From IMG/VR virus record IMGVR_UViG_3300025006_000320: a DNA stretch of 64,000 nt. One strand, 5' to 3'. Positions 946-55,380 of the stretch are shown piece by piece (the stretch's first letter is position 1; every line of letters starts with the position of its first letter). A program made the translations under genes and the position numbers. The DNA comes from a virus. Below the pieces are notes generated by a model that saw nothing but the letters and a program-made list of their open reading frames with translations, did no database searches and was not told where the DNA came from.

Positions 946-1015
946 AATAACATCAAGGGATGTGAGGCGGTGCTTTCGCACCCAATAGCCAGCTCATAAC
1001 TGGCTATCAGTTGCG

Positions 1016-1246: not shown

Positions 1247-1254
1247 AGTTCTCC

Positions 1255-1494: not shown

Positions 1495-1498
1495 TGGT

Positions 1499-1894: not shown

Positions 1895-2109
1895 CAAGCC
1901 CCCCTTTGCTTGCGTATAAGCTCCAGGTCAGCCTGGCAACTGGCGCAGGTCTGGCAGCCGGGAACGGCAGCGCGCCGCGGCTCGGGAATTGGTTCGTCGC
2001 ATTCTTCACAACGCTCAGCTGATACGGCGTTGCGGTTCAGGCGGTGAGCGGAAAGGGCGGCGTTACGCTGAAGCTCTTCAATCTCTGCTGCTGTGTCGAT
2101 GATGTCCAT
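1894..2109 (-). CDS. TraR/DksA C4 zinc-finger protein
   Basis: DIIDTA (DxxDxA) and CEEC...CQTCASC; GGAG SD 8 nt before the ATG at 2109. Confidence 0.9.
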   Translation of the reverse strand: MDIIDTAAEIEELQRNAALSAHRLNRNAVSAERCEECDEPIPEPRRAAVPGCQTCASCQADLELIRKQRGA

Positions 2110-2111
2110 GG

Positions 2112-2204
2112 TCAATGCTCCCGGAACTGTCGGTTAATTCGGTTGAAGGTGAACGCCAGCAATAAAAAAGGAGCCTTAAGCTCCAGGGTGATTTGCGTTT
2201 TCAT
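2112..2204 (-). CDS. 30-aa small protein MKTQITLELKAPFLLLAFTFNRINRQFREH
   Basis: Fills the gap between neighbours; ATGA overlap with the upstream gene. Confidence 0.45.
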   Translation of the reverse strand: MKTQITLELKAPFLLLAFTFNRINRQFREH

Positions 2205-2521
2205 AGTGGGTTTCTTTTGGGTTTGCTTTTCGCAGCTCCAGCAAAAAACAGAGCGTAGACGAGAGCGGAGGCCGCTAATGCCGTATGGTCTGTGACGATG
2301 AGGGCATAAATTGTCATCACGGATAGAGGAATGCTTAGCCACAAATATTTCATTTCCTCAAGCACGAACTCATGGGTGAGGGCTCCGCAGAAAACCCCAA
2401 TCCACGCCAAAACAGAAATAACCAGGTACGAGTAATAGGCAAACTGCTGCGCCTGCTCGTTACCGAAAAGAAGACATCCAATAATGGCAAGGCTAATTGC
2501 CGTTGATAATATTTTGCTCAT
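2201..2521 (-). CDS. Membrane protein, about 4 hydrophobic segments
   Basis: 106 aa, strongly hydrophobic, ATGA overlaps. Confidence 0.7.
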   Translation of the reverse strand: MSKILSTAISLAIIGCLLFGNEQAQQFAYYSYLVISVLAWIGVFCGALTHEFVLEEMKYLWLSIPLSVMTIYALIVTDHTALAASALVYALFFAGAAKSKPKRNPL

Positions 2522-2709
2522 GCTGCACCGCCTTCATTCTTCTCGGCTTCGACCGCCATCTGCTCAAGCCGTCGCGATAACTCGGCGGCCAGCGTCTGGA
2601 ATTCTTCTTCGGTAGCCACCGGGATCGGCACAAAGCGAATCCCGATGTGCGCGAGGTGGTTGGCTATTTCGAGGCTTTTCCTCAAATCAACGGGTGAGGC
2701 TCTGTTCAT
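2518..2709 (-). CDS. DUF1382-like protein
   Basis: ASPVDLR.SLEIA..LA.IGIRFVPIPV.T.EEF..L pattern. Confidence 0.7.
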   Translation of the reverse strand: MNRASPVDLRKSLEIANHLAHIGIRFVPIPVATEEEFQTLAAELSRRLEQMAVEAEKNEGGAA

Positions 2710-3572
2710 GCGACTTTCTCCCCGGGTAATGGTTTCAGACCGTCATTCAACGTGCGCTCAAGGTTGGACAATATTCCTCGCAACCTCTTAATCTCTTCAT
2801 CCTCGGTGAGTCGGCGCGCTGCTTCCCATAGCGTCCTTGTAAGAACATACATAGGGACATTCGGGTCGAGGCCAAGCGCTTTCGCCAGATCTTGCTGAGC
2901 GTCGGTTAACCTTTCCTCCGATTCCTCCCGGCGCTTACGTCGGCGTTGCAACTCCTCTTCACTTTCTTGGCGCAGGTTCTTCAGCCTTTCATCGTTATCC
3001 CTAATATGCTGCTCAAGGCGCTCCTTAGACCGATGTGCTCGACAAACAAGATCGGCGATTTCATTGCCATGTCGCTTCATTAGTTTTTGGTCGCTGAGGT
3101 AGGTATTGATTACGCGGCTTTTTATTTGGGTTCTTTCTGCCTGCCGGGTCATGCCATCCATAAGCAGCTTCATCCAGGCATCGCGAGGAAGGGTATCAAT
3201 CTGGCGCATTGTCGGCCCCTTGAGGGTATGCCATCCAGTTTCCTTCCGGATCATCAAGCCGCAACCATCTGGGATGTCGCTTTTCTTGAGCATGCCTTCA
3301 GGAACAGCAAAAACAACGCCACCTGCGTAGTTGAAGTATTTGGTGTATTTGCCTGCTGTAACGTCAGCCCGGAAATCACTAACGCTAACTTTGACCTCAT
3401 AGACGACAGGGCAGAACTTGCTGTAGCTGTGAGCAATAGAGTAGACATCGGGTCGACACGTACCGGCGGGCCCTAGCTGCATGTCCTCCCAGCAGATGCG
3501 CGCTGTGTTCTGGCGCAAATGCTCTGCAAGGTCATGAGCAAGCTCGTTATGACCCCATTTTTTTGTTGTCAT
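2706..3572 (-). CDS. MmcB-like PD-(D/E)xK nuclease with C-terminal coiled coil
   Basis: RPDV...YEVKVSVSDFRAD...KY..Y...VVFAVP motifs. Confidence 0.65.
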   Translation of the reverse strand: MTTKKWGHNELAHDLAEHLRQNTARICWEDMQLGPAGTCRPDVYSIAHSYSKFCPVVYEVKVSVSDFRADVTAGKYTKYFNYAGGVVFAVPEGMLKKSDIPDGCGLMIRKETGWHTLKGPTMRQIDTLPRDAWMKLLMDGMTRQAERTQIKSRVINTYLSDQKLMKRHGNEIADLVCRAHRSKERLEQHIRDNDERLKNLRQESEEELQRRRKRREESEERLTDAQQDLAKALGLDPNVPMYVLTRTLWEAARRLTEDEEIKRLRGILSNLERTLNDGLKPLPGEKVA

Positions 3573-3787
3573 TGTTCGGCTCCAAACCGCCCGTTAAGGC
3601 GGCCAGTTTTGACGACGAACTCCAGGAGGCTAACTCCCAGAGCTTCAATTTTCTTGTGATGTTTGTTGATGATGGGAGGCACCGTTTCGTTCCAGTTAGG
3701 CTTTGGCTTCTTGCGCATGGCCTGCTGGATTTCCTCGGTGCAGCGGCGGCAGGCTGCGCGAATGGCGTTTTCATTTGCTGGCGTCAT
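3569..3787 (-). CDS. Hypothetical protein
   Basis: 72 aa, ATGA overlaps on both sides. Confidence 0.7.
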   Translation of the reverse strand: MTPANENAIRAACRRCTEEIQQAMRKKPKPNWNETVPPIINKHHKKIEALGVSLLEFVVKTGRLNGRFGAEQ

Positions 3788-4335
3788 GCGGCCTCCCGGC
3801 GGGCGAGAAGTTTCACCCCGAAAGCCATCAGCTCGTCCCGGTCCATAGTTGCGAAGTGGCAGTGTGTACGCGGATACGGTCGCCAGATGATGAGCATCGA
3901 CCCTTTGTTGTTGCCGCTTACCGGCTTACCGGTGACCGGGTTAATAAATGCCAGCCGCCCGGCGGTGATGAGGCGAACCTCGCTAGCTGTCTGGATAGCC
4001 TCTTTGAACCAGCTAACCGAAGTGTCTGCCGGTACCAGCATTACCGTGCCGATCTGATTGGAGCTCTCGGCGGCTGCCTTCTTAACAAACGGTGTAATGT
4101 CGCTGTATGGTGGGTTCAGCCAAACGTAGCCAGGAATGCTCAGGTAATCAGCCCATGGCGTTTCCAGAGTGTTCTGCTCGGCGGTGATGAACTTTCGGCA
4201 CAGCGCGTTATGCGGCGCCGCGGCGGCATCCAGTTGAAAGCAAAACTCAGCATCAAGGGAGGCGAAAAGGGCGGGTGGAGTGCGCCATAGGTCACGCTGA
4301 TCCGCTGGGGTGTTGCTGCCGGTGTAATCGGTCAT
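3784..4335 (-). CDS. dam: Phage DNA N6-adenine methyltransferase
   Basis: DLWRTP, F.LDAAA and WLNPPYS motifs. Confidence 0.9.
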   Translation of the reverse strand: MTDYTGSNTPADQRDLWRTPPALFASLDAEFCFQLDAAAAPHNALCRKFITAEQNTLETPWADYLSIPGYVWLNPPYSDITPFVKKAAAESSNQIGTVMLVPADTSVSWFKEAIQTASEVRLITAGRLAFINPVTGKPVSGNNKGSMLIIWRPYPRTHCHFATMDRDELMAFGVKLLARREAA

Positions 4336-4499
4336 ACATCCTCCCGCTCCGGATCGTTAACATCCCAGCCATTACGCTCAATATTTGTTTTCAGCCGCTT
4401 ATCTCCGACCTCTTCAATGCTGCGGCCGGTAATCTCCGCGACTTCAGCGTTTGAGTGTCGCCACAGCAGCGCAAGCTCTTCGAGTGACCACGCTTTCAT
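4332..4499 (-). CDS. 55-aa hypothetical protein MKAWSLEELALLW... (not in track)
   Basis: Open frame with ATGA overlaps to both neighbours. Confidence 0.7.
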   Translation of the reverse strand: MKAWSLEELALLWRHSNAEVAEITGRSIEEVGDKRLKTNIERNGWDVNDPEREDV

Positions 4500-4924
4500 A
4501 GCACTGACTCCATTTCGTCGATGTAGAGGCCCTGAGCAATCAGGCGTCGACGGCGGGCGGCACGTTCAATGCACTCCTGCCGTCTGCCTTCCTGCGATTG
4601 TTCAATGGCGCGCCGGGTGAACAGCCGCGATTTGCCCTGCGGCGTTACAACCTTCGGCTTCGTTACGAGGTCGAAAGTGCGGTCACAGATACCGTCTTCG
4701 TTGAGCCATTTTTCCGACTCAACGATCTGCGCTATCTGTCCGGTGCCGCGGGTGATGCCGTTGGCCACCCTGTTAAACTCGATGAGCGTTACGCCAAACT
4801 TCTCGGCGATTTCGCTGCCCGTTACCGGGCGGCCGCGCGTCTGAATCATCCAGATAACGCGTTCACGGAGGCCGGAAAATTGCCCGGTTCGCCCGGGCCT
4901 GCGGTAAAAGGGTGTGCGTTTCAT
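4496..4924 (-). CDS. Winged-HTH-like protein
   Basis: RERVIWMI....RPVTGSEIAEKFGV. Confidence 0.6.
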   Translation of the reverse strand: MKRTPFYRRPGRTGQFSGLRERVIWMIQTRGRPVTGSEIAEKFGVTLIEFNRVANGITRGTGQIAQIVESEKWLNEDGICDRTFDLVTKPKVVTPQGKSRLFTRRAIEQSQEGRRQECIERAARRRRLIAQGLYIDEMESVL

Positions 4925-5544
4925 TCGATCTCCAGGATGCGGTGCTTCGTGTCCGCAACAAGTTCGAGGAAGTCTTTTCGGCGCGCCCGAAGCCGGGCTA
5001 TTTCTGATTCACATTCGGCAGCTGTAAGGCGATAGACGATGAGCTGTTTACCGTCCGGGAAGTCTGAGCAGTAGCTGATGAAGTCCACCCAATCCCTGCC
5101 AGAGCAATCAAGGTGACCGATCAGTTGCCATCTGTATGCAGGGTCGAAGGAGCCGCGGGTGAGGGTGGAGTAGTGAGTGGCGGCAATGACCGACTTAATC
5201 TCAACGAGCCCGTCCAGTCCAACGAGTCCGTCGGGGCTGTCACCGTACGTTTCGTGATCAAAGAATCCGCCGTTATCCACATCGACGAAGTTCATCTCTT
5301 CGTACAGCATGCGGGCAATAGGCTCCTGTTCGTGCCCGCGCTCCATGTGCTCATTTGAGAAGCCAAACTCAGACTTGCACCCCTTAATCTGCTCCAGAGC
5401 CAACTGTATAGCGTAACGCTTGGCCGGTTCGCCAAACGCTTTCCCATCGTTAGCCATGATCAGGCCGAAGTTTGAAGCAGTGGCCTTACCCAGGCGAAGA
5501 GCATCCCACTCTTCACCGTTTTGCTCGACGTCGTGCCAGATCAT
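4921..5544 (-). CDS. YqaJ/lambda-exonuclease family protein
   Basis: Q.GEEW..LRLG..TAS, GHEQEP.AR, SPDGLV, EIK motifs. Confidence 0.9.
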   Translation of the reverse strand: MIWHDVEQNGEEWDALRLGKATASNFGLIMANDGKAFGEPAKRYAIQLALEQIKGCKSEFGFSNEHMERGHEQEPIARMLYEEMNFVDVDNGGFFDHETYGDSPDGLVGLDGLVEIKSVIAATHYSTLTRGSFDPAYRWQLIGHLDCSGRDWVDFISYCSDFPDGKQLIVYRLTAAECESEIARLRARRKDFLELVADTKHRILEIE

Positions 5545-6044
5545 GATGAACACTCCTGCTCAAGTTGGCGGCGATATTCTGGAGAAATGTCCATTCTCGC
5601 CAGCACTGCATCAAGGTTGCCATCGCGCTTGAAGGCGGCCTTAGCGTTATTCCATGCCTGCGTTTTTTCCGGTGAAAGCACCGGCTTTGTAACGCGTGCC
5701 GGGCTTAAGCGGAGGCCTTCAACCGATTCCTTTCCGAACCGGACATTTTTATCGACGTAAACAGTGACCTTTACGCCAACCCAATCTTCAAGGAATGGCG
5801 AGCCGGTAATGCTTTTCAGCATCTTGCTGTTCGTGGCATTCAGAATCATCGGCTTGAGCTTTTCGCCAGGGCGCAGCTCGCGCTCTTCAAAATAAGCAGT
5901 GTTAAAAACGTCTTTGGATTTTTTTGTTTTGTCGTTTTCTAACGTTGCCCGGGCGATCGTCAGCACCGTTGGCTCAACGATATCGGCGCTGCTCAGGTAA
6001 GGGGAGTCAAAAGCTTTTCGGTAGTGAGTTTTAGTTTCAGACAT
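5541..6044 (-). CDS. Hypothetical protein in the bet/erf position; candidate ssDNA-binding or annealing protein
   Basis: Directly upstream of the exonuclease; AAGGA SD 8 nt before the ATG at 6044. Confidence 0.5.
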   Translation of the reverse strand: MSETKTHYRKAFDSPYLSSADIVEPTVLTIARATLENDKTKKSKDVFNTAYFEERELRPGEKLKPMILNATNSKMLKSITGSPFLEDWVGVKVTVYVDKNVRFGKESVEGLRLSPARVTKPVLSPEKTQAWNNAKAAFKRDGNLDAVLARMDISPEYRRQLEQECSS

Positions 6045-6055
6045 TTCATGCATCC

Positions 6056-6340
6056 TTAAAACGGGCAGCCGGTACGGTGTTCCCAGTCGTATTCCGCCTG
6101 GGCGTAAGCAACTGCTGAAATGAAATCGTTGTAGGCCTCGCCAGCTTTATCGCTGCGAAGTCCTTCGTATGGGCTGGAGTCAATCGGGATCGTGAAGTGG
6201 AAGAGGCCTGACGGCTCTTTCGGCATCATGTCGATGATTTTCTGCGCCCGGTCGTCGATCCACTTCTCTTTCTCGTCGGTGATCTGCTGCTCAGCCCAGC
6301 GCCGATCTTCGATGCGGTCGTAAGTGAGGTATGCGTTCAT
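6056..6340 (-). CDS. Hypothetical protein (94 aa)
   Basis: GAGG SD before the ATG at 6340. Confidence 0.75.
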   Translation of the reverse strand: MNAYLTYDRIEDRRWAEQQITDEKEKWIDDRAQKIIDMMPKEPSGLFHFTIPIDSSPYEGLRSDKAGEAYNDFISAVAYAQAEYDWEHRTGCPF

Positions 6341-6347
6341 GGTTGCC

Positions 6348-7316
6348 TCAATATTTGATGTGCGCGTCCTGCACTTTGCCGCCAGCAATCGCCAGCAGTG
6401 CTTTCTGCGCGAATTCTTCAGGGATGCCCTGATTAATTAGGTCGGCGATGACGCGACTATTGACAGTGCGGCGGTGCTCCTTGTCTGCGGCGCGGCGCGC
6501 TTCTTCTTCAGCTTTGCGCTGCTCTTCGGCTAGACGGGCGGCTTCTGCCTCTTCCAGGCGGCGGCGCTCGGCGGCAACGGCTTCTTCTTTTTCGCGGCGC
6601 GCACGCGCTTCCGCTTCCTGCTTCTCGCGTGCCGCACGCTGTTCCGCTTCAATGCGCTGGCGCTCCGCCAGTTCAGCGCGGGCTTTCTCTTCGGCTTCAC
6701 GGCGCGCTGCGGCTTCAATCTCCGCTTTGTGCTTCGCTTCGGCATCGCGGCGGGCTTGTTCTGCCGCTTCACGCTTAATACGCTCTTCATGCTCACGTTG
6801 AGCTTGTTCCGCCATGCGGCGCTGCTCTTCGCGGTCACGGTCGAAATCCTTATTCATCAGCAGAGCCATTTCGTGGTCCGCTTCAAACTTGTCCGCCAGC
6901 TCCTGATCGAACTTGATGTTCATTTCCAGAGCTTCGGCGTGCAGCGCGTTCATGGCTTCTTCAGCCTTGATACGTTCCTGCTCGGCTTCCCATTCGGTGA
7001 GTGGGCGGCGGGTCGCATCGCGCAGCTCGTCACAGGCATCAACAAATCGCTTAATTTCGGCCTCAGCCGGACGCACAGCCTCTTTAAGGCGCTTCAGGTA
7101 CTCACGGCCTGGCTTTTCGATTGCCGTCTTGCTGCGGGATACCTGCGCCGCCAGAGAGGCTACTCGGTCACGCCCCTTCTTCGTGGACAGGTCCGGCACT
7201 TCGTTTACTGCCTGGCGGATTTGCTCGAGGTAAGCATCAAGGCCGCCCGCTACGTAAAGTACTGGCGCCTGCTCCGGCTTGATTTCGATGACAGTTAAGT
7301 CCGTTACTTCGCTCAT
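6348..7316 (-). CDS. Long coiled-coil (A/E/R-rich) phage protein
   Basis: 322 aa, AGGAG SD, EAR-rich helical C-terminal half. Confidence 0.8.
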   Translation of the reverse strand: MSEVTDLTVIEIKPEQAPVLYVAGGLDAYLEQIRQAVNEVPDLSTKKGRDRVASLAAQVSRSKTAIEKPGREYLKRLKEAVRPAEAEIKRFVDACDELRDATRRPLTEWEAEQERIKAEEAMNALHAEALEMNIKFDQELADKFEADHEMALLMNKDFDRDREEQRRMAEQAQREHEERIKREAAEQARRDAEAKHKAEIEAAARREAEEKARAELAERQRIEAEQRAAREKQEAEARARREKEEAVAAERRRLEEAEAARLAEEQRKAEEEARRAADKEHRRTVNSRVIADLINQGIPEEFAQKALLAIAGGKVQDAHIKY

Positions 7317-7386
7317 GGTTTCTCCTGAAATTTGGATGTGCAGATCCCGCCCGCTTTTAGCCAGGCCGATCGGTTGAATAGGGTGG

Positions 7387-7833
7387 TTACTTAGAAAGTT
7401 TTGAGTTCCAGGACTCTATGGCAGAAATTGGTGAGTCGAAGGTAACAGGGGCAATCCATCCGCAGCACTTCAATTGGAACTGATTGAGGATGTATGGCTC
7501 AGGACCAATCCTGCAGCCTCGATCCCATTCGAACGCTTTAATTACGGGCTGTCGTTTGCAAAATGGACACTCTGTTGTGTCAGGGAGATTTTCGAAAGAA
7601 ATGTCCGGTAACGATCCATCATCCTCAGCCCATTGAAGTTCGCCTGGCACAACAACCGAATATCCGTCCCAACGGTCAAATTCAGGAGAAAGAACATCTT
7701 CGTAACCAGCGCCACGAAGGCGAAATTTAGCTCGGGCAATAACGACAAGCCCTTTAACTTTTCGGCTACCCATTCGCCACATATAAACACCGGCGGAATC
7801 AGGCTTGCGTTCAGAGTATTTAACCCATTGCAT
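7387..7833 (-). CDS. Protein with C-terminal Lar-like zinc domain
   Basis: CPFCK...KCCGW...AIESWN pattern of the restriction-alleviation Lar family; GGAGG SD. Confidence 0.5.
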   Translation of the reverse strand: MQWVKYSERKPDSAGVYMWRMGSRKVKGLVVIARAKFRLRGAGYEDVLSPEFDRWDGYSVVVPGELQWAEDDGSLPDISFENLPDTTECPFCKRQPVIKAFEWDRGCRIGPEPYILNQFQLKCCGWIAPVTFDSPISAIESWNSKLSK

Positions 7834-7990
7834 GCTCACCTCCGCGCTGATTCGTCTTTGCCCGATGCCACGGATAACCTATGGCAACCTTCATTTCGTC
7901 GTAGGCTGCCATCCACATGGCGCCATCACCGATAAACAGGGCGATGGCTGCTTTACTCTGCGCGGCGCGCAGCAGGTGATGATTGATCAT
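7820..7990 (-). CDS. kil: Lambda-type Kil cell-division inhibitor (56 aa, not in track)
   Basis: MINHHLLRAAQSKAAIALFIGDGAMW resembles lambda Kil (..AIQTKFTIATFIGDEKMF). Confidence 0.75.
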   Translation of the reverse strand: MINHHLLRAAQSKAAIALFIGDGAMWMAAYDEMKVAIGYPWHRAKTNQRGGEHAMG

Positions 7991-8145
7991 GCCTTCACCT
8001 CAACCTGTTCAAGGAGGCCAGCCAGCTTCATGTGCCAGCGGTTCATCGTCAGCTTCTCGCGCGGATTCGATACCGACGTCAGCTGCCACTCGTTATCGTT
8101 GAGCTTTTTGGCGGTGTACTGCTTGCCGTTGTGGGTGACTGTCAT
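7987..8145 (-). CDS. 52-aa hypothetical protein MTVTHNGKQYTAKK... (not in track)
   Basis: GGAGG SD, ATGA overlap with kil. Confidence 0.7.
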   Translation of the reverse strand: MTVTHNGKQYTAKKLNDNEWQLTSVSNPREKLTMNRWHMKLAGLLEQVEVKA

Positions 8146-8399
8146 GATGCCTCCCGGGCGTGGAGCATTGCATCAGCCAGCAGGTAAGCTCTTGATGCTA
8201 TCCCATCAACAGTTTCGAAGTAGGCCCCTTCAGGCTCTCCATCAGCACCTCGCGCAGCAACTATCAGCGCTTTTGCAGCGAAATAATCGCGCAATGTCAT
8301 GCCGCCAGAGCTGACTTCGAAACCATGTAAGTGACCAACTTCGTCGCGCTCCACGATAGAATCGCACGGGAAAGCGCGCCCTCCAGTTTTATTGCTCAT
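8142..8399 (-). CDS. Conserved phage hypothetical protein (GG.AFP...GMTLRDYFAAKA...ADAML)
   Basis: GAGGA SD before the ATG at 8399; widespread motif. Confidence 0.75.
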   Translation of the reverse strand: MSNKTGGRAFPCDSIVERDEVGHLHGFEVSSGGMTLRDYFAAKALIVAARGADGEPEGAYFETVDGIASRAYLLADAMLHAREAS

Positions 8400-8468
8400 A
8401 AATCCTCTTGGCCTTATCGCGGCGAACGGAACGGTTAATACAAGACTTCTGCGCTTGTGCGGCAAAAC

Positions 8469-8494
8469 AAAAAAAGTGGCGGTGGATGGCCGCC
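8469..8494 (-). terminator. Intrinsic terminator in the left operon
   Basis: GGCGG-CCATCCA-CCGCC then a T-tract on the minus strand. Confidence 0.6.
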
Positions 8495-8536
8495 GGTTGT
8501 CATAACTAACCGCACTCATCGAGAACGGTGAGGTAT

Positions 8537-8562
8537 GAAAAAAGCCGCTGGTTAGGCGGCTC
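8537..8562 (-). terminator. Intrinsic terminator in the left operon
   Basis: AGCCGC-CTAACCA-GCGGCT then TTTTT on the minus strand. Confidence 0.7.
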
Positions 8563-8836
8563 TGAGTTTGTTGACGTAATTCATGCATACTGTAGGGCTG
8601 CATGTTCGCCATGTGGTTTTATGCTGCATCCGCTTGCTTGGCGGGTAATAAGCAACAGTCCCTTGCGGTGTACGAAAAATGAGAGTGTTTTCTCCCTCTT
8701 CGAACTCAACTCCATTACGTTGAAAGAAAGCCTTCATCCCTTCATGTGCTGAGTTACGCGCCATCCTGCGCCGCTCTTTAAGTTCTGGCTTCATGTCTCG
8801 CCAAAACTCCCCCATCGTATAATCGTCGTCTGCCAT
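8552..8836 (-). CDS. Hypothetical protein (94 aa)
   Basis: GAGGG SD before the ATG at 8836. Confidence 0.7.
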   Translation of the reverse strand: MADDDYTMGEFWRDMKPELKERRRMARNSAHEGMKAFFQRNGVEFEEGENTLIFRTPQGTVAYYPPSKRMQHKTTWRTCSPTVCMNYVNKLRAA

Positions 8837-8881
8837 AAAACCCTCTGTCGTTACCCGCTGATGCGGGAGAAATGCTTTGGC

Positions 8882-8985
8882 GATTGGATGGCCGGCGCTG
8901 ATCTCCGGCATGTAGATTCGGTTCTGCCGATAAATCCCACACTACTTCCGCTTCGTTGCGCATCAGCCTGCGCATTCATCCAATC
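8882..8985 (-). ncRNA. Multibranched structured RNA, C4/CI/IsrK-like candidate
   Basis: 9-bp closing stem GATTGGATG/CATCCAATC with three internal arms; see finding. Confidence 0.5.
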
Positions 8986-9067
8986 CCAAAACATTCCAGT
9001 TATTGCCGGGGTATTTATCCGCGCCCGGCGCGCGCTTTCCCGCTATTCCCCAACAGCAAGAAATCGC

Positions 9068-9409
9068 TTACTCTTTAATCTCCCCAACAGTAGAAAGGAT
9101 ATATTCATGCAAACCATGCGGACCGTGTGCCCTGACTGCGGAAGTGAGATGTTCAACCAGCCCGATGATTTTGACTTTGAGACAAATTTCACCGGCGTCA
9201 GTTGTGCTGACTGTGGTCGAGAAATCACTAAGGACGATGTTGTCAATCAGGCCACGGACACGGTCAAAAAACAGCTCGACGACATGCTCAGGAATTCCCT
9301 GAAAGGAACTGGCTGGAAGTTCGACTAATTTCAAAAGCTCCCCGAACTGAGTAAGAACCTCACTGGCGTCTACGTTAAGCAGTAGTGGCGCCGTTTTTTT
9401 ATCTGCCAT
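9068..9409 (-). CDS. First gene of the pL operon, hypothetical (113 aa)
   Basis: GAGGGG SD before the ATG at 9409; open across the antisense gene. Confidence 0.55.
   Translation of the reverse strand: MADKKTAPLLLNVDASEVLTQFGELLKLVELPASSFQGIPEHVVELFFDRVRGLIDNIVLSDFSTTVSTTDAGEICLKVKIIGLVEHLTSAVRAHGPHGLHEYILSTVGEIKE
9107..9328 (+). CDS. Small zinc-binding protein (CPDC...CADC), ECs_2282-like
   Basis: AAGGA SD, ATG at 9107, two CxxC pairs. Confidence 0.7.
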   Translation: MQTMRTVCPDCGSEMFNQPDDFDFETNFTGVSCADCGREITKDDVVNQATDTVKKQLDDMLRNSLKGTGWKFD

Positions 9410-9469
9410 ACACACCCCTCTGTTTGTTTACCGTCAGCCCCTCGTAAAGAGCTGCTGGTAAATCGCTTT

Positions 9470-9539
9470 GCCATAATTGCCGCTCTCCCTGAGCCCGCCT
9501 ATGGTCCGACGCATGGTTTACTGTCGCGCCGTTCGACTG
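9470..9539 (-). ncRNA. putL: put-like antiterminator RNA (putL)
   Basis: GUCGAACGGCGCGACAGUAAACCAUGCGUCGG...GGCGGGCUCAGGGAGAGCGGCAAU closely matches HK022 putL as recalled, with compensatory changes; lies just downstream of pL. Confidence 0.8.
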
Positions 9540-9604
9540 ACCGAATCTCCACTTCGCCGCTGGCTAACTTCGCTCAGCTGTCGATGTTTCGTTTCGATGA
9601 GTTG

Positions 9605-9665
9605 ATTATTAACTAATGGTTATTTTCAGTCAATAACCATTGGTTAATTATTTTACCGTTGGTTA
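9605..9665 (-). promoter_or_regulatory. pL (TTGACT-17-AATAAT) with OL operators
   Basis: TAAC-N5-GTTA at 9610-9622 and 9634-9646; TTAC-N5-GTTA at 9653-9665. Confidence 0.8.
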
Positions 9666-9756
9666 TTAAGGTTATGATTTATTGGTTAATTTAGTTCTGT
9701 TATGGATTTGTGCAGTACGTGCTATGCTGCAAAAAACATCAAAAAGGAGTGGTGAG

Positions 9757-9954
9757 ATGGACTTGGATGAAGAAAGAGTGAACATGATGGTTCACGCCAT
9801 GGGGCGGGCGGTCATGGAATTGTCACTGGCTGATTTACCCATGACCCAGCAAAACATCATCGACAAGCTGAAGCAGTACCGGAAGGAAACAGGAAACGTG
9901 ATCGGCAAGGGAGTTAACAGGGATGCTGCGGAGTTGGTGAGGAAGGGGCAATAA
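9757..9954 (+). CDS. Accessory hypothetical protein (65 aa) between OL and cI
   Basis: AAGGAG upstream; candidate extended -10 TGCTATGCT at 9720-9728. Confidence 0.65.
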   Translation: MDLDEERVNMMVHAMGRAVMELSLADLPMTQQNIIDKLKQYRKETGNVIGKGVNRDAAELVRKGQ

Positions 9955-10093
9955 AAAAGCCCGCACGGGCGGGCAGGTAGTGTTGCGATAGTTATTGTTA
10001 TCAGCTTCAGGCTGGATAGTTATCGGCAGAATGGGGGATAGCTTTATGGGTGGGCAATAAAAACCCGGCGCAGTGGCCGGGTTGGGCTATAAA

Positions 10094-10798
10094 TCAGAAT
10101 TTTGAAATGTCGATGTTGTAGATCGCCATCCATGCCTCTGCGGGATAGGAGTTAAGCGGTACTGATTGGTAATGCGGGGTAAGAATTTCAACAGATAAGC
10201 TGTGATAACTGCAGTAGTTTGCCAGCATCTGCCAGCTATATTTTCCAGGAATAACGCTCTTTACATGCGCAATCGTGGCATGCCTAAACCCTTCACCTTT
10301 ACTATGAACGTATTTGTTATGCTGCATGACGTGGTTACCGAAAGAGCCGCGTACAGACTTAAACTGGCCGTCTTTCTTTTCCAGCATCATCTGAGCGCGT
10401 TCTGCCGCTTCCGCCTGATCTGCCAGTTGGCGAAGAGCATCAGCGTATGTTTGTGGCACCATCTTATACCCGCCTGTTTTACGGATGGATGGAAGCACCT
10501 CGGAGGTAACCCACTTTTTAAAATGTTTTGCCTCTACTTTCTGCGATCCCATGACTGCATTATATAGCCCAGATTCATTAATAAGCGTCTGATTTGTATA
10601 GTTTCGTCCATTTTGCAGGGTTTGCTTTCTCTTTTCATCATCATCCAGTCTTTCTGTCATGTTACTGGTTTCAGCATACCCAAGAATATCTGCAACGTCC
10701 TTAGCAACAAACCACACTTCTGAATCATCGTCAGTCATAGTCCTGACGGCATTGCCGTTAAAATCAAATTCATTTAGAGCTACTGGATGACTCATCAT
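10094..10798 (-). CDS. BRO-N domain antirepressor-type protein
   Basis: F.F.G..VR...WFVAKDVA..LGY, INESGLY..V, FKKWVTSEVLPSIRKTG.Y; AGGTG SD. Confidence 0.85.
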   Translation of the reverse strand: MMSHPVALNEFDFNGNAVRTMTDDDSEVWFVAKDVADILGYAETSNMTERLDDDEKRKQTLQNGRNYTNQTLINESGLYNAVMGSQKVEAKHFKKWVTSEVLPSIRKTGGYKMVPQTYADALRQLADQAEAAERAQMMLEKKDGQFKSVRGSFGNHVMQHNKYVHSKGEGFRHATIAHVKSVIPGKYSWQMLANYCSYHSLSVEILTPHYQSVPLNSYPAEAWMAIYNIDISKF

Positions 10799-11048
10799 TT
10801 CACCTAATAAAATTGGCATCCAATGCTTTACAGGGGAAAACGCTTGAGGTAATCTCCCCAATCGAGATCTCAAGAAAACATTCTAGCCGATGTTTTTTCA
10901 GCCCCTGGTAGCGTCAACTATCAGGGGCTTTCCGTTGTTGGCGAGCAGAAAACGATCACACAACAGCGGGATCCTACCCAGGCTAAACAGAAACTTCAAC
11001 AAAATGATCAGCTTATAGCTGATTTTTTTCACACCTGTAATTCCATCC

Positions 11049-11077
11049 AATAAAAAAGGCCGCATCTCTGCGACCCC
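11049..11077 (-). terminator. Terminator downstream of cI
   Basis: GGTCGC-AGAGAT-GCGGCC then TTTTTT on the minus strand. Confidence 0.7.
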
Positions 11078-11112
11078 TCAAGCAACCATTCAAACCAGCC
11101 GCATCTTCGTCT

Positions 11113-11889
11113 TTACAGCAACACCGAGTACCAGAATATGCGACCGATTATCTCAACATCATCAATGTCAGCTTCTTCATCCGGATATGCGTCGCCGTTG
11201 TAGCTGCGAATGATTAGCTTGCCGCCCGGCTTCCGGTATAGCTGCTTAATGCGCTTGAGCTGCCCGCTACCGCCGTCTGCCTGACCAATGGCATACAGCT
11301 TACCGTCAACTATGCGCTTGTTGTTCGTGTCTACGGCTACCGTAGTGCCATCGGGAATGATCGGCTCCATGCTGTCACCTGTGGCCGGGAAGCAGAGAAC
11401 TCCAGAACCGTCGGTGTTTGCCCCTACTCGGCGTAGTGTTGACTTGGAGAACCTGAGCTTAAAACCATTGTGATCTTCGCTGTGTACGCGTCCATCGCCA
11501 CACGCAAATTCAATATCCTTAAGAAACGGCACTTCAACCTCGTCAGCAGGAAGCGGTGTGTTTTTGTCCCAAGCGTCAACAGTTCCCCACTCGGATTCCG
11601 GCGGGATAGAAGATTCCCTGTGCAGTTCAGGCTCAGGATCATTCCTTCCGTATTCCAGCCACTCAGGGCGAACCCCAAGCCAGCGGCTAAGTGCAAGGAT
11701 ATTGGTTTGGTCTGGTATTGCTGATGCGTTAAGCCACTTCCAGATCCCGGGCTCAGATACAGCAATCCCCTGGGACTTCATAGCTTCCCTGATCCTGCCA
11801 GCCTGCCCACGCCCACCCACGCCAGCATCAAGCAATGCAGCGCGAAGTCTCTTCGAAAACTCTTCTTTTAAATCGTCTTTTTTAACCAT
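11113..11889 (-). CDS. cI: CI repressor, HTH plus S24 autopeptidase
   Basis: N-terminal HTH, ACG cleavage-type site, GDSMEP Ser and LKR Lys; divergent from cro. Confidence 0.92.
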   Translation of the reverse strand: MVKKDDLKEEFSKRLRAALLDAGVGGRGQAGRIREAMKSQGIAVSEPGIWKWLNASAIPDQTNILALSRWLGVRPEWLEYGRNDPEPELHRESSIPPESEWGTVDAWDKNTPLPADEVEVPFLKDIEFACGDGRVHSEDHNGFKLRFSKSTLRRVGANTDGSGVLCFPATGDSMEPIIPDGTTVAVDTNNKRIVDGKLYAIGQADGGSGQLKRIKQLYRKPGGKLIIRSYNGDAYPDEEADIDDVEIIGRIFWYSVLL

Positions 11890-11952
11890 GTGTTAATTAT
11901 CAATTAGAGTTGACATAACTGTCAGTTAAGATATAACCTTAACTCGTAGTTA
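11883..11952. promoter_or_regulatory. OR3/OR2/OR1 with pR (TTGACA-16-TATAAC) and pRM (CTGACA-18-GATAAT)
   Basis: TAAC-N5-GTTA at 11883-11895, 11916-11928 and 11940-11952, the same consensus as OL. Confidence 0.85.
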
Positions 11953-11973
11953 ATATAGTTAACGGGAAACACT

Positions 11974-12219
11974 ATGAACCCAATGCAATTTGCAATCGAA
12001 GCTGTAGGCGGACAAACCGCAGCGGCACGCCTATGTGGTCTGTCGAATGTTGCTATTCACAAGTGGGTAAAGAACGCGGCATTGCCTCGCACCGAGTACA
12101 CAGAGAAAACCAACTATTCACAGCTTTTGGCTGACGCATCAAAAGGGCAGTTTACGGCGGAGTGGCTACGTCAAGCCGCAAACCCCGATCGAACTAAACA
12201 TGGATCACATGCCGCCTGA
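11974..12219 (+). CDS. cro: Cro-like repressor
   Basis: AIEAVGGQTAAARLCGLS..AIHKW HTH, divergent from cI. Confidence 0.85.
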   Translation: MNPMQFAIEAVGGQTAAARLCGLSNVAIHKWVKNAALPRTEYTEKTNYSQLLADASKGQFTAEWLRQAANPDRTKHGSHAA

Positions 12220-12246
12220 GGGCGGCCCTAACTAAAAATCACAGGA

Positions 12247-12279
12247 AGTATCGCAAATGGAAACCTTAACGACACGCAA
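12247..12279 (-). promoter_or_regulatory. Candidate CII-dependent pRE
   Basis: TTGC-N6-TTAA, then 13 nt, then GATACT; same geometry as lambda pRE. Confidence 0.45.
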
Positions 12280-12478
12280 CAAAGCGGAGGCACGACGAAT
12301 TGAGAGTTGGGTGCAGCGTCAAATCGCAGATCTGGGTACCGCCCGGATAGCCGAAGTAGCTGGCATCAACAAATCCACAGTCAGCCGGTGGCGGGAGAAC
12401 CTGGTACCGAACATGTCGCTGCTGCTGGCCATCCTGATTTCTAACCGGGATGGAGTGAAGGGAGATTTTGAAGCATGA
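12257..12478 (+). CDS. cII: CII-family activator (short, 73 aa)
   Basis: RN.A.ARRIES....IA..G...IAE.AGI.KS.VSRW, downstream of cro. Confidence 0.8.
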   Translation: METLTTRNKAEARRIESWVQRQIADLGTARIAEVAGINKSTVSRWRENLVPNMSLLLAILISNRDGVKGDFEA

Positions 12479-12560
12479 ACGCAGAAAGGGCGAAAGCCGA
12501 GGTGCTGTAACACCAACGGCTTTCAGGTGGAATTAACTGGATCAATTCACAGGAGCAATT

Positions 12561-13415
12561 ATGGCAAACACTGCCGAAGTAATCAATTTCCCTGTGCCTG
12601 ACGTGGCACCTAAGGAGCCGCGCGTGGCAGATCTTGATGATGGCTATACGCGCATCGCCAATGAACTTCTGGAGGCTGTCATGCTGGCTGGATTGTCTCA
12701 GCATCAGCTGCTGGTCTTCATGGCAGTAATGCGCAAAACATACGGTTTCAACAAAAAGGCAGACTGGGTAAGCAATGATCAGTTATCTGCCCTGACCGGC
12801 ATCCTCCCACACAAATGCTCTGCGGCTAAAAGTGCGTTAGTTAAGCGTGGGGTATTTACCCAAATCGGGCGAACTGTGGGGATTAACAAAGCGGTCAGCG
12901 AATGGGTGAAATTACCCAAATCAGGTAACGAAAATAAAGTTTACCTGAAAGAGGTAAATTTACCAGAATCAGGTAAGAAAAGTTTACCCGAATCAGGTAA
13001 CGACACTTACCCAAATCAGGTAAACACAAAAGACAAACATACAAAAGACAATAAAGACAATATTAATAAACCCCCTAAATCCCCCAAACCGGCTTCGTTC
13101 GATCCGGCTGGTGTTGAGCTTCCTGAATGGCTGTCAGTTTCAGTCTGGAAGTCATGGGTCGATTATCGTCGCGACCTGAAGAAACCGATCAAGTCTCAGC
13201 AGACGGTTACCCAGGCCATCAACCTGCTCGAGCGTTGCAAGTGCAGCGGATATCAGCCTGAAGAAATCATCAACCAGAGCATTGCGAACGGCTGGCAGGG
13301 ATTGTTTGAGCCGAAAGGCATCAAACAGCCAGCCCGCAATCAGACTCGCGTATCCGAGAACTTCGCTGGCAAGGACTATGGACAGACTGAAATTCCGTCA
13401 TGGGCGAGGGACTGA
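12561..13415 (+). CDS. Lambda O-type replication initiator
   Basis: ADLDDGYTRIANELLEA...RKTYGFNKK.DW; contains the iterons. Confidence 0.9.
   Translation: MANTAEVINFPVPDVAPKEPRVADLDDGYTRIANELLEAVMLAGLSQHQLLVFMAVMRKTYGFNKKADWVSNDQLSALTGILPHKCSAAKSALVKRGVFTQIGRTVGINKAVSEWVKLPKSGNENKVYLKEVNLPESGKKSLPESGNDTYPNQVNTKDKHTKDNKDNINKPPKSPKPASFDPAGVELPEWLSVSVWKSWVDYRRDLKKPIKSQQTVTQAINLLERCKCSGYQPEEIINQSIANGWQGLFEPKGIKQPARNQTRVSENFAGKDYGQTEIPSWARD
12912..13070. repeat. Replication origin: five iterons plus an A-rich tract
   Basis: TTACC-N7-GGTAA at 12912, 12941, 12960, 12984 and 13007, followed by A-rich DNA. Confidence 0.9.
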
Positions 13416-13417
13416 GT

Positions 13418-14272
13418 ATGGAACTGCTCGAAAAAATCGACGCTATCGAAAAAATGCTGGAAGTTCTCGGCAGGCCGCCAGAGCAACTCCCTAACTGCGA
13501 GATCGTCTGTGAAACGGTGCTTTGCGAGAAACACGGCGAATACGAACAGCGTAAACGCGTGCTTACCAGCAGTCTGATCAAGCTGCCGTCACCGCCGACT
13601 CGTTGTCCGGGCTGCCTGCGCGATGAGCTGACCTTCCTGTATGACGAGAAAAAGCGTTGGGAAGACCGCACGCGCCAGCAGAACGTCGATCGTCTGCTGC
13701 GCCAGCTCGAAATCCCTGAGCGCTTTGTAACGTGCACGCTGGAAAACTACCAGCCGGTAGGCAAAGAGTCAGAACGCGCGCTGCGGGTTTGCCAGGCGTA
13801 TGCCGCGAAGTGGCCGGAGCGCCTGAAGCAGGGTGGCGGTCTGGTGATGTGCGGAAAGCCGGGTACCGGTAAAAACCATCTCGCCCTGGCGATCGCCCGC
13901 TACGTCATCGAGAACCACCAGAGCCCGGTAATTTTCACCACCGCGCTGAAGATTGCCCGTGAGTTCAAATCAACGTGGTCGAAAACAGCGACGCGCTGCG
14001 AGAACGATGTGATTTCGCACTTCACCACTCCGGACCTGTTGATCATCGATGAGGTAGGCGTCCAGTTCGGCAGCGAAGCCGAGAAGCTGATCATGTTCGA
14101 AATCATCAACACCCGGTACGAGCGGATGAAGCCGACCATCCTGATCAGCAACCAGACCAAAGAAGAACTGGCGGCGTTCGTGAGTGAGCGCGTTATTGAC
14201 CGTATGAGCGACGGTGGCGGGTGCACGCTGTCATTCACCTGGGATTCTTACCGTTCAAAGGGGGCAGCGTGA
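13418..14272 (+). CDS. DnaC/IstB-like helicase loader
   Basis: C..HG...CP.C zinc motif, GKPGTGKNHLA Walker A, LLIIDEVG Walker B, SERV.DRM. Confidence 0.9.
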   Translation: MELLEKIDAIEKMLEVLGRPPEQLPNCEIVCETVLCEKHGEYEQRKRVLTSSLIKLPSPPTRCPGCLRDELTFLYDEKKRWEDRTRQQNVDRLLRQLEIPERFVTCTLENYQPVGKESERALRVCQAYAAKWPERLKQGGGLVMCGKPGTGKNHLALAIARYVIENHQSPVIFTTALKIAREFKSTWSKTATRCENDVISHFTTPDLLIIDEVGVQFGSEAEKLIMFEIINTRYERMKPTILISNQTKEELAAFVSERVIDRMSDGGGCTLSFTWDSYRSKGAA

Positions 14273-14463
14273 AAGCATGCAGCGACGACTATGTCGTTAT
14301 CAACCAGTATTCGAAAGGGGATGCAGCCTGGATAGAGCGCGTTGATACCGATGAAAAGCGAAAAGCACTTTACAAATCGAGTTGGGAAATAGCCGTAATC
14401 TCGCTCGCAATCGTTCGTGAATATGGGATCCGGAGGGTAGGCAATGACCATAACAATCCGTGA
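14269..14463 (+). CDS. Hypothetical protein (64 aa, GTG start)
   Basis: GTGA overlap with the loader gene. Confidence 0.6.
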   Translation: MKACSDDYVVINQYSKGDAAWIERVDTDEKRKALYKSSWEIAVISLAIVREYGIRRVGNDHNNP

Positions 14464-14788
14464 GCAGGTGCTGGCAGCCCTGCGCAACAACCCAGGGCTG
14501 AACAGCGTCAAGCTGGCCGAGCTTATCGGCATGGACACCAAAAAGATATCGGGAACGGTGAGCACGCTGCTGGCCGACGGCCTGATTAGCTGCGAAGGAA
14601 AATACGGCCAGCGCCTTTACAGCCTGACCAGTTACGGCATGCGCTTCGCCCCTGACACGATACCGGGCATGAAGCAGGGCAAGTCGAAGCTAATTCAGCG
14701 GACGGACACAAACGTGATCTGCCAGGAGTGCCGCAACAGCGCGGCGATGAGAAGGGTATTGATGGTTTGGGAGAGGGCAGGGGTATGA
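14444..14788 (+). CDS. Winged-HTH protein
   Basis: IREQVLAAL..NPGL....LAELIG.....ISG.VS.L...G. Confidence 0.75.
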   Translation: MTITIREQVLAALRNNPGLNSVKLAELIGMDTKKISGTVSTLLADGLISCEGKYGQRLYSLTSYGMRFAPDTIPGMKQGKSKLIQRTDTNVICQECRNSAAMRRVLMVWERAGV

Positions 14789-15063
14789 AAATTTTAAAAC
14801 TGAGTCAGCAGGCAACAGTTTCTCGTCCGGTCGATTCGATTATCGGTTGGGAAGAGAAAACAATCTACGAGCCAGTTTTTGTTGTGGCTGAGCATATTGA
14901 GTCGTTTTTGTTTGCTGGAGTAAGCCACATCAAAATGACCTCGGGCGAAAAGATAGTTGTACGAGAAACACCTGAAGAAATTCTCGCGCTGCTTGGCGTC
15001 GGTGTTCAAACGGATAGCCTGAAAACATGGGGTGAAATTGCGCAGAAGGAGGCCGCCCAGTGA
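14785..15063 (+). CDS. Small FlbD-like hypothetical protein
   Basis: V.AEHIES...S.I.M.SG..IVVRETPEEI motif. Confidence 0.55.
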   Translation: MKILKLSQQATVSRPVDSIIGWEEKTIYEPVFVVAEHIESFLFAGVSHIKMTSGEKIVVRETPEEILALLGVGVQTDSLKTWGEIAQKEAAQ

Positions 15064-15620
15064 GCAACATCGACAAACGCGCATTACGTGAAGCGGCTGA
15101 ACGTGCAGGACAAAATGACTGGGAGTACGTCTACACCAGCGACCTCAGCGCCCCAGGGCGGGGATATATCACAGTAGGCGGAGCAGAGGCTATCTACTGT
15201 CTGAATAAAGCCGCAGGGGGAGTGAAACAGTCGGAAAACGTATTGAGATATATCGCTGCAGCTAGCCCGGAAACAATGCTGGCGCTGCTGAATGAGATTG
15301 CTGAACTTGAGCAACGACATTGCGGAACAGCATTGCTTGAGCGAGAAGAAATGCACACCAAAACTCTGGGTAGGATGTTGGATGAGCTGGAAGAGTCCGA
15401 GCGGCTACGCTTTAAGTTCCAGGAAGCTAACTGCGAATTGTGCCAGAAGCTGGAAGCCGCAGAGAAGCGGATTGCTGAGCTGGAGCGTAAAGAACAGCAC
15501 AGTGAACGCCAGTCAGTAATTGATGCGCTGGCTGGTTCTGGTGAGGAATGGAGTGATATCGAAGAATACATGCAGAAGTGGGACGCGGAACGCGCCTCCG
15601 CAGCCGGTAAAGGGGAGTAA
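15060..15620 (+). CDS. Ead/Ea22-like protein
   Basis: MSNIDKRALREAAE and YIAAASP...LALL.E..ELE. Confidence 0.8.
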   Translation: MSNIDKRALREAAERAGQNDWEYVYTSDLSAPGRGYITVGGAEAIYCLNKAAGGVKQSENVLRYIAAASPETMLALLNEIAELEQRHCGTALLEREEMHTKTLGRMLDELEESERLRFKFQEANCELCQKLEAAEKRIAELERKEQHSERQSVIDALAGSGEEWSDIEEYMQKWDAERASAAGKGE

Positions 15621-15622
15621 GC

Positions 15623-15799
15623 ATGAAATACGAAATCCCGGAATCAGAAGATATTGAATGGCAGCAGGATATGCTCCGTGAAATAGACAGCGCCCTTGAT
15701 GTCTTGCGTGATGAACATGAGCACGCAGAGGTAGTGGAGGAAATCATCAATGATATCACCGCGAGAATAGCATCACTCCGCGCGTACTCTGGATACTGA
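15623..15799 (+). CDS. 58-aa acidic hypothetical protein MKYEIPESEDIEW... (not in track)
   Basis: GGAG SD, open frame filling the gap. Confidence 0.7.
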   Translation: MKYEIPESEDIEWQQDMLREIDSALDVLRDEHEHAEVVEEIINDITARIASLRAYSGY

Positions 15800-15809
15800 G
15801 GACTAACCT

Positions 15810-16508: not shown

Positions 16509-16526
16509 TCGTCAAGGCTAAAAAAT

Positions 16527-16559
16527 AGGTATGCGGATTACATCACCGCATGCCTTTTT
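16527..16559 (+). terminator. Terminator in the early right operon
   Basis: AGGTATGCGG-N9-CCGCATGCCT then TTTT. Confidence 0.7.
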
Positions 16560-55149: not shown

Positions 55150-55194
55150 AAAACCCTCTGTCGTTACCCGCTGATGCGGGAGAAATGCTTTGGC

Positions 55195-55298
55195 GATTGG
55201 ATGGCCGGCGCTGATCTCCGGCATGTAGATTCGGTTCTGCCGATAAATCCCACACTACTTCCGCTTCGTTGCGCATCAGCCTGCGCATTCATCCAATC
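55195..55298 (-). ncRNA. C4/CI-like structured RNA candidate (copy 2)
   Basis: Copy of 8882..8985. Confidence 0.5.
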
Positions 55299-55380
55299 CC
55301 AAAACATTCCAGTTATTGCCGGGGTATTTATCCGCGCCCGGCGCGCGCTTTCCCGCTATTCCCCAACAGCAAGAAATCGC

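Follow-up and report, generated by a model that had tools for sequence, protein, structure and literature searches.

The window analyzed here is a 64,000-nucleotide (nt) stretch of viral DNA (IMG/VR record IMGVR_UViG_3300025006_000320) in which a 46,313-bp, HK639/phi80-like phage genome is wrapped on itself, with positions 1 to 17687 identical to 46314 to 64000 and all features there therefore duplicated. The subject of this analysis is a cloverleaf-forming element on the minus strand (8997 to 8869), which recurs at 55182 to 55310 because of this wrap. The element lies about 600 nt downstream of the start of the early leftward promoter pL, and since a scan of this region of the window found no terminator-like site between pL and the element, it is carried on the pL transcript. 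Neighboring genes fit a lambdoid left operon, with a cI-like S24 repressor (11113 to 11889), a Bro-N protein, and Kil (7820 to 7990), and the ribosome binding site (RBS) of a gene starting at 8836 follows the element. Window positions 9616 to 8988 are 96.8% identical to phage HK639, whose annotation was transferred by alignment. The cloverleaf is a member of a large family of transfer RNA (tRNA)-shaped structures in lambda-like early leftward transcripts that are unannotated and outside Rfam, and it is probably an RNase III-processed leader cassette of the pL operon in a put-type lambdoid phage, homologous in position and frame to the RNase III site of lambda.

The cloverleaf fold and its covariation

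A sequence-only reading of this site had described a 9-bp closing stem around three arms, a hairpin, a Shine-Dalgarno (SD) sequence, the ATG at 8836, and a 42-codon open reading frame (ORF) through the element, and all of these features are present as written. The closing stem, in which GATTGGATG (8985 to 8977) pairs with CATCCAATC (8890 to 8882), turned out to be part of a longer helix than had been described. In the minimum free energy (MFE) fold, 12 further pairs (8997 to 8986 with 8880 to 8869) are added outside the 9-bp stem, separated from it by one bulged G (8881), giving a closing helix of 21 bp (Table 1). The MFE of positions 8830 to 9000 (171 nt) was −65.1 kcal/mol, compared to a shuffle mean of −50.5 (z score of −3.9), and none of 200 shuffles was as good. 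The 104-nt core alone had a z score of −2.8 versus shuffles. Four of the five SD bases of the 8836 gene were predicted to be 93 to 96% unpaired and the last 36% unpaired.

The proposal that the pL transcript carries a structured noncoding cloverleaf was borne out by conservation and covariation across relatives. Scanning IMG/VR with a 16-mer yielded 85 complete copies, 65 of them distinct, and the 65 distinct sequences come from IMG/VR phages, phage records, and Escherichia coli prophages. For the covariation test, these 65 sequences were aligned with MAFFT (alignment A4), the structure was written from the window row, and register-anchored counts were added. An alignment produced with a covariance model (A3) was discarded because arm 1 was mispaired in relatives with long middle arms. 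In A4, 95.9% of cells were paired, compared to 88.6% in column shuffles, with 0 of 500 shuffles as high, and in controls where the 3′ partner was slid by 1 to 3 columns, 27 to 40% were paired. Both sides had changed at 18 pairs. A-U, U-A, and G-C were swapped in roughly equal numbers at three positions of the outer stem, and G-U pairs were frequent on the pL-sense strand only (47 G-U at outer pair 2). Selection on the RNA is indicated by these compensatory changes and by G-U pairs being confined to one strand. The 5′ strand of the inner stem is uninformative in the 65-sequence set because it was fixed by the search pattern. Inner stems differ yet stay paired in sister cassettes (those of lambda, P22, phi80, and HK639, the second copy in locus L088, and the second copy in locus L014). 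The cloverleaf fold is supported by covariation.

The 42-codon ORF (8979..8851) stops 14 nt before the 8836 gene, and the program-made list gives it as 8851..8994, with 47 amino acids (aa) from an earlier ATG. This ATG is buried in the 21-bp helix. ORFs through the element vary in frame, length, and sequence among relatives, and a conserved peptide is therefore absent. Protein family searches with the small ORF, the 8836 gene, and a 112-aa upstream ORF returned nothing but one weak PHROG match.

Relatives, shared flanks, and exchanged interiors

A relationship to lambda is seen in a prophage of E. coli 98224 (L006) and 10 IMG/VR loci, where the lambda boxB/nutL, stem base, and N gene surround the cloverleaf of the window. 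In these loci the cloverleaf replaces the lambda interior at the site of the lambda N-leader stem. The lambda N leader, from nutL to the N RBS, folds to the same form, with GCUUUGGGGUGUGUG pairing with CACACACC-A-CCAAAGC around a bulged A and a branched interior (z score of −4.0). The leader of P22 gene 24, the N analogue, likewise folds into a stem-bulge-stem structure with three arms. HK639 and phi80 share the flanks of the element (outer stem strands, hairpin, and SD region) and differ in their interiors. The 45-nt block at 8840 to 8884 is 100% identical to the region directly upstream of phi80 N, and the leader-stem architecture precedes phi80 N too. A covariance model built from nine family members (R1) scored the window element at 141.7 bits (E = 6.3e-37), the phi80 leader at 29.8 bits (E = 2e-5), and the lambda leader (477 to 609 of L007, matched over the full length) at a weak 17.6 bits (E = 0.06). 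Rfam scans of the lambda, P22, phi80, HK639, L085, L006, and L088 leaders returned nothing meaningful.

By BLAST, the cloverleaf type of the window occurs in 156 of 5,426 complete E. coli genomes, as well as in phages of Erwinia, Edwardsiella, Klebsiella, and Escherichia, including Stx2c-converting phages. A contig scan with the 16-mer gave mostly chance matches, with loci from Pseudocitrobacter and Pantoea alone being real. At annotated loci, the repressor region is on one side of the element and the first pL gene on the other, and this gene is annotated as N in Erwinia phage 59, Edwardsiella phage GF-2, and one E. coli prophage. Every locus read has an SD and a start codon after the element on its own strand, mostly about 10 to 20 nt from the outer stem and in a few cases about 60 nt away, and the orientation of the element relative to pL and the downstream gene is constant in the 85 loci extracted. 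Many of the first downstream genes have an arginine-rich, N-like start, as judged by eye. In N-type relatives, the gap between the end of boxA- and boxB-like nutL sequences and the outer stem is 5 to 12 nt. Such relatives (e.g., L005, L007 from lambda, and L188 from P22) also carry a CCAAAG-like copy 5 to 10 nt upstream of CUUUGG, which can form a small local hairpin competing with the long-range outer stem and may represent a cotranscriptional folding intermediate. This upstream copy is absent from the window.

Two of the three arms end in nearly invariant loops. The arm 1 loop is GGCUGA in 56 of the 58 canonical sequences, and the arm 3 loop contains UCAGC, UCAGU, or UUAGC in 56, with ACAGC in the other two (L093 and L047). 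The GCUGA of loop 1 is perfectly complementary to the UCAGC of loop 3. In L125, ACUGA occurs together with UCAGU, a compensatory double change, and the remaining loop 3 changes preserve G-U pairing. One variant, GCUUA in L175, is uncompensated, and it was the single real variant from IMG/VR scans for the arm 1 loop, which otherwise returned almost entirely chance matches. In a subfamily (L025 and L115), the arm 3 loop is UUCC or UCCU, and by eye an upstream GGGAA loop could serve likewise. This pattern of loop sequences makes a contact between arms 1 and 3 through GCUGA and UCAGC likely. At the bulge on the 3′ strand, the purine is A in 42 of 65 sequences and G in 23, and the three bases that follow are CCA in 53 and CCU in 12.

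Between these constant arms, the middle arm falls into 21 unrelated sequence classes of 33 to 152 nt among the 58 canonical relatives, and one class occurs with up to 5 different outer stems. The middle arm of L085 contains a T-arm-like piece. In L120 (2058 to 2507, minus strand), the variable position holds a complete 150-aa HNH_3 plus AP2 endonuclease gene with its own SD, around which both stem strands, the 5′ half of arm 1, and the 3′ half of arm 3 persist. Sister cassettes have other interiors. HK639 (L001, 4040 to 4109, minus strand) has a 70-nt tRNA-like interior within the same outer stem, with a T-loop (GGUUCGAAUCC), a 7-bp acceptor, and ACCA. ARAGORN calls this interior tRNA-Ile (GAU) with a reduced D arm, a call that the Rfam tRNA models do not back, giving just 12 bits, to tRNA-Sec. 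Locus L088 has two tandem cassettes with the same outer stem (4140 to 4296 and 4421 to 4551, both minus strand). The first is of a type identical to that of the window, and the second is tRNA-like, with a D-arm-like AGCUC...GAGCU, a T arm (GCUGG-UUCGACU-CCAGC), ACCA, and a weak match to the transfer-messenger RNA (tmRNA) model (10 bits, E = 0.05). Locus L014 has a second, partial copy (4587 to 4712, minus strand) with the same arms 1 and 3 and an inner stem of UGUGGUG/CACCACA, located on the strand opposite to the main copy of that locus and about 180 nt from a tRNA-Arg (UCU) gene (4895 to 4970). ARAGORN found 0 tRNA genes in the window and, among 28 relatives, called only the HK639 cassette, two further calls being ordinary tRNA-Arg genes elsewhere. 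Rfam tRNA-clan models found nothing on the element and reached at most 10 to 12 bits on the most tRNA-like variants.

Several other features lie near the element. The promoter is overlapped by a 17-bp AT-rich perfect palindrome (9608 to 9648), presumably the operator region, and an Rfam match to mir-889 at the same positions was rejected as spurious, being due to this palindrome. Farther downstream is an antisense nested pair, with a plus-strand frame (9107 to 9328) inside a minus-strand ORF (9068 to 9415). The plus-strand frame encodes a 73-aa CxxC...CxxC protein that matches NCBIfam ECs_2282_CxxC at 83 bits (cutoff, 37). The minus-strand ORF (112 to 115 aa, annotated HK639_45) has its own SD but only a weak PHROG match. 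If the plus-strand CxxC gene alone is real, the pL leader would be about 750 nt long and untranslated. A GC-rich hairpin without a U-run (GCGCGCC...GGCGCG, 9019 to 9035, minus strand) lies between the upstream ORF and the cassette and is kept in HK639, L075, L088, and L120.

Table 1. Parts of the cloverleaf element and associated features of the window
Feature	Position	Strand	Evidence or remark
Outer stem, 5′ strand GGAAUGUUUUGG	8986..8997	-	Pairs with 8880-8869 (MFE); 7 of 12 pairs covary, e.g., A-U/U-A/G-C swaps
Inner ("acceptor-like") stem, 5′ strand GAUUGGAUG	8977..8985	-	Pairs with 8890-8882
Arm 1, 5-bp stem GCGCA/UGCGC, loop GGCUGA (8968-8963)	8958..8973	-	4 of 5 stem pairs covary; in DNA letters TGCGCA-GGCTGA-TGCGCA (8974-8957); GCUGA (8967-8963) is the proposed kissing sequence
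Middle hypervariable arm GUAG.../...CUAC with inner UCGG-CAGAA-CCGA hairpin	8910..8957	-	21 sequence classes among relatives
Arm 3, 5-bp stem GCCGG/CCGGC, loop AGAUCAGCG	8891..8909	-	Abuts inner stem without linker; in DNA letters GCCGG-AGATCAGCG-CCGGC (8909-8891); UCAGC (8901-8897) complements the arm 1 loop
Inner stem 3′ strand (8890-8882), bulged G (8881), outer stem 3′ strand CCAAAGCAUUUC (8880-8869)	8869..8890	-	MFE fold
Hairpin CCCGC-AUCA-GCGGG	8854..8867	-	Leader/RBS module common to phi80 N and HK639 gene 44 (45-nt block 8840-8884 identical in phi80); contains CGCATCAGC (8865-8857)
SD GAGGG (8845-8841) and ATG (8836-8834) of first gene after the cassette, 94 aa	8834..8845	-	Without family match
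putL-like antiterminator RNA, upstream on same transcript	9406..9531	-	Maps onto HK639 misc_feature "putL-like antiterminator RNA"
pL promoter, −35 TTGACT, 17-nt spacer, −10 AATAAT	9605..9633	-	Promoter scan 10/12; corresponds to HK639 "putative pL"
Second appearance of cloverleaf element	55182..55310	-	Wrap of 46,313-bp genome; covariance model 141.7 bits at both sites

A probable leader-processing cassette and competing explanations

Because lambda nutL and N flank the cloverleaf in one prophage, an RNase III-processed leader cassette is the best reading of the element. RNase III regulates lambda N mRNA (PMC8708148). In P22, an abundant 96-nt RNA (P22B) from the gene 24 leader was reported by RNA-seq in 2026 and ends at the 3′ strand of the outer stem, 16 nt before gene 24 (PMC13397905). 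The accumulation of P22B means that a discrete RNA does arise from this leader position in a relative, and by this analogy the earlier expectation that a discrete RNA is cut from the element probably holds.

A transcript from pL passes through the putL-like RNA and about 340 nt of ORF or antisense sequence before folding the 21-bp long-range helix, in which the 12-bp outer stem, the bulged purine, and the 9-bp inner stem close a three-arm, tRNA-shaped junction with its arm 1 and arm 3 loops probably paired. By analogy with lambda and P22, RNase III would then cut both strands of the long helix and free the upstream leader from the downstream message. The message would keep a short 5′ hairpin and an open RBS, setting translation and stability of the first gene, while a stable cloverleaf RNA of about 105 to 125 nt would be released and could accumulate. 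In lambda, the cuts are reported to fall near +88 and +197 of the pL transcript (Steege in 1987 and Kameyama in 1991), and these two positions face each other in the folded stem. RNase III regulation of lambda N mRNA is reportedly also the subject of Wilson et al. in 2002 (EMBO J 21:4154). Antitermination of the put type needs no transcript tether (PMC9378689), and cutting downstream of putL would thus be tolerable.

Several observations weigh against this reading. RNase III cleavage is documented for the lambda member alone, not for the window variant or other members, and the reported ends of P22B are not at a mid-stem RNase III cut (PMC13397905). The R1 match of the lambda leader is weak (17.6 bits, E = 0.06) and comes mainly from the common stem base. 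The kissing contact rests on two invariant loops, the one compensatory pair in L125, and changes compatible with G-U pairing, with L175 uncompensated. In the window, the cassette lies about 400 nt after putL rather than beside a nut site and precedes a non-N gene. In lambda, processing relieves N-mediated translational repression, and with no adjoining nut site and a non-N gene this logic cannot apply unchanged.

Part of the same evidence could also mean that the cloverleaf itself is the product, which we regard as possible though improbable. Processing would overlap with that of the leader cassette and the purpose would differ: a tRNA-shaped small RNA with a hypervariable cargo arm would be cut out by RNase III and/or RNase P, trimmed at its 3′ end to the encoded CCA, and work in trans, perhaps as a regulator or by luring away tRNA-directed host defenses as a decoy. 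The junction resembles a tRNA in its 2-nt linker, in the abutment of arm 3 on the inner stem, in its complementary D- and T-like loops, and in a bulged purine followed by CCA (53 of 65), and tRNA-like interiors occupy the same outer stem in HK639 (the ARAGORN call with the T-loop GGUUCGAAUCC) and in the second L088 cassette (a canonical T arm, ACCA, and the weak tmRNA-model match). The T-arm-like piece in L085, the shuffling of 21 middle-arm classes among outer stems, and the abundance of P22B (PMC13397905) are consistent with such a product. However, ARAGORN found 0 tRNAs in the window, Rfam tRNA-clan models found nothing on the element and 10 to 12 bits on the best variants, the CCA is base paired and reads CCU in 12 of 65 sequences, the RNA has no known target or partner, and the middle arm may simply be unconstrained. 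A more specific version, which we consider unlikely, casts the stem and arms 1 and 3 as a tRNA-shaped scaffold, an "RNA expression cassette" in the first phage transcript, whose variable middle arm RNase III would excise and stabilize, with the RNAs acting in trans early in infection. The cargo would then comprise small hairpins, tRNA-like modules, and a homing endonuclease gene, and it is similarly unlikely that released RNAs serve, for example, as decoys against host tRNA-targeting or RNA-sensing defenses. If true, a trans role of the released RNAs would explain the arms-race-like diversity of the cargo. The structure could instead remain uncleaved and act in cis as a stable block that insulates the first RBS against translation or structure farther upstream, protects the mRNA, or hinders Rho loading with no nuclease involved. 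A very stable helix does stand directly before the RBS in all loci, the SD is predicted to stay unpaired, and in N-type phages the upstream CCAAAG copy could pair with CUUUGG as an alternative hairpin. This explanation leaves the invariant loops and tRNA-like junction unaccounted for, cutting by RNase III is documented for the homologous structure of lambda, and P22 shows a processed RNA (PMC13397905), making an uncleaved structure quite unlikely.

The sequence-only reading had favored an antisense switch, in which arm 1 (GCUGAUGCG) of a processed C4/IsrK-type RNA would bind CGCAUCAGC within the hairpin that precedes the RBS and gate the kil/recombination genes, and this now appears very improbable. 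The 9-nt complementarity is exact and is reached by 1.3 to 1.9% of dinucleotide shuffles, but it was found post hoc and is nominally unusual only. Energetically, a trans duplex of arm 1 and the hairpin (−17.9 kcal/mol) is neutral relative to the two hairpins that would be opened (−17.7 kcal/mol), whereas in cis the same 9 bp would form at a penalty of about 20 kcal/mol. The SD is predicted to be about 95% unpaired regardless of this pairing and is thus already open. Of the 85 loci, 76 have arm 1 and only 11 the hairpin, leaving 66 with arm 1 and no hairpin, and the hairpin also stands beside unrelated interiors lacking GCUGAUGCG (phi80, HK639, L115, and the second L088 cassette). These counts do not support an action of arm 1 on the downstream hairpin. 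The ATCAGC that had been pointed out in the arm 3 loop is indeed there, and it is a better partner for arm 1 than the hairpin, conserved inside the element itself. Because the hairpin (GCAUCAGCG) resembles the arm 3 loop (AGAUCAGCG), the complementarity is explained without a function. Membership in the C4, c4-a1b1, or IsrK class (RF01695, RF03163, and RF01394) found no backing either: cmscan over 7000 to 12500 at E ≤ 10 gave no match to these models on the element. On 8836 to 9000, the only cmscan match was an 18-nt rydB-like hairpin, and IsrK matches of 15.7 and 16.4 bits (gathering score, 50) lie elsewhere. Nothing supports the further suggestion of a second immunity layer. Least probable of all is that the 42- or 47-codon ORF is a small protein gene or that the element works at the DNA level, for instance as a mobile cassette or a recombination joint built of inverted repeats. 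An ORF does exist at 8851..8994, interiors are swapped precisely at the CUUUGG/CCAAAG stem base, which may be a mosaic recombination joint, and one copy contains the HNH gene. Against this, relatives do not keep a constant ORF, the 21-bp helix hides the ATG, the pairing changes and one-sided G-U pairs indicate selection at the RNA level, and orientation is fixed in 85 loci, with the L014 partial copy on the other strand as the exception.

Recognizing this cassette would improve the annotation of a region in which genome records mostly show nothing or list small ORFs that are spurious. The family has a tRNA-like junction with covariation support, a probable loop-loop contact, and a freely exchangeable cargo arm. 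It offers a testable set for asking by what route early phage transcripts are processed and whether the RNAs cut from them do anything by themselves.

Comparison with known systems

Processed phage RNAs such as P1/P7 C4 with its a1/b1 targets, P4 CI, and Gifsy-1 IsrK resemble the proposed cassette RNA in being derived from an operon transcript. They differ in that their covariance models do not match the element, and the target proposed for the element does not co-occur with the RNA across relatives. The element is also not a member of the HK022-type put antiterminator RNAs, since the putL-like RNA of the window is a separate element (9406 to 9531).

Compared to tRNA and the tRNA-like domain of tmRNA, the element has an acceptor-like stem, a 2-nt linker, a D-like arm, an insert in place of the anticodon arm, and a T-like 5-bp arm stacked on the acceptor, followed by a purine and CCA that mimic the discriminator base and CCA end. 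True T-loops occur in some sister cassettes. In contrast to tRNA, the acceptor-like stem of the element is 9 bp, the arm 3 loop has 9 nt without a T-loop consensus, the proposed loop-loop contact would consist of 5 Watson-Crick pairs, and the CCA is base paired.

The leaders of ribosomal RNA (rRNA) operons offer an analogy without sequence relation. There too, a nut-like site immediately precedes a long-range RNase III helix, on the side of its 5′ strand, and a structured RNA lies inside the helix, although the cargo of the cassette is 100 to 230 nt, compared to 1.5 kb in rRNA operons. Tethering of boxA RNA by Nus factors has been proposed to help the strands of the rRNA-leader helix meet (PMC4807359).

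P22B has the same leader position as the window element, and its 3′ end corresponds to the 3′ strand of the outer stem (CCAAAGCCAUUUC), whereas the P22 interior differs in sequence and the reported 5′ end of P22B lies inside the structure (PMC13397905). The lambda N-leader RNase III structure differs from the element in having an unrelated interior sequence, and the cloverleaf family has two invariant complementary loops and a hypervariable arm. In the window, a put RNA and an ORF, not nutL, stand upstream of the element, the gene after it is not N, and its cleavage is proposed from its relatives. Common to both structures is their location on the pL transcript, downstream of the antitermination site and ahead of the first RBS. 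Both also have a bulged 3′-strand purine in a long-range helix of roughly two turns, which closes a branched interior and ends a few nucleotides before the SD. They share the CUUUGG/CCAAAG stem base, and their interiors have been naturally exchanged (L006). This suggests that the lambda N-leader RNase III site, commonly regarded as specific to a single phage, represents one allele of a modular and widespread cassette, absent from Rfam and genome annotation, that is present in enterobacterial lambdoid phages with N-type as well as put-type antitermination.

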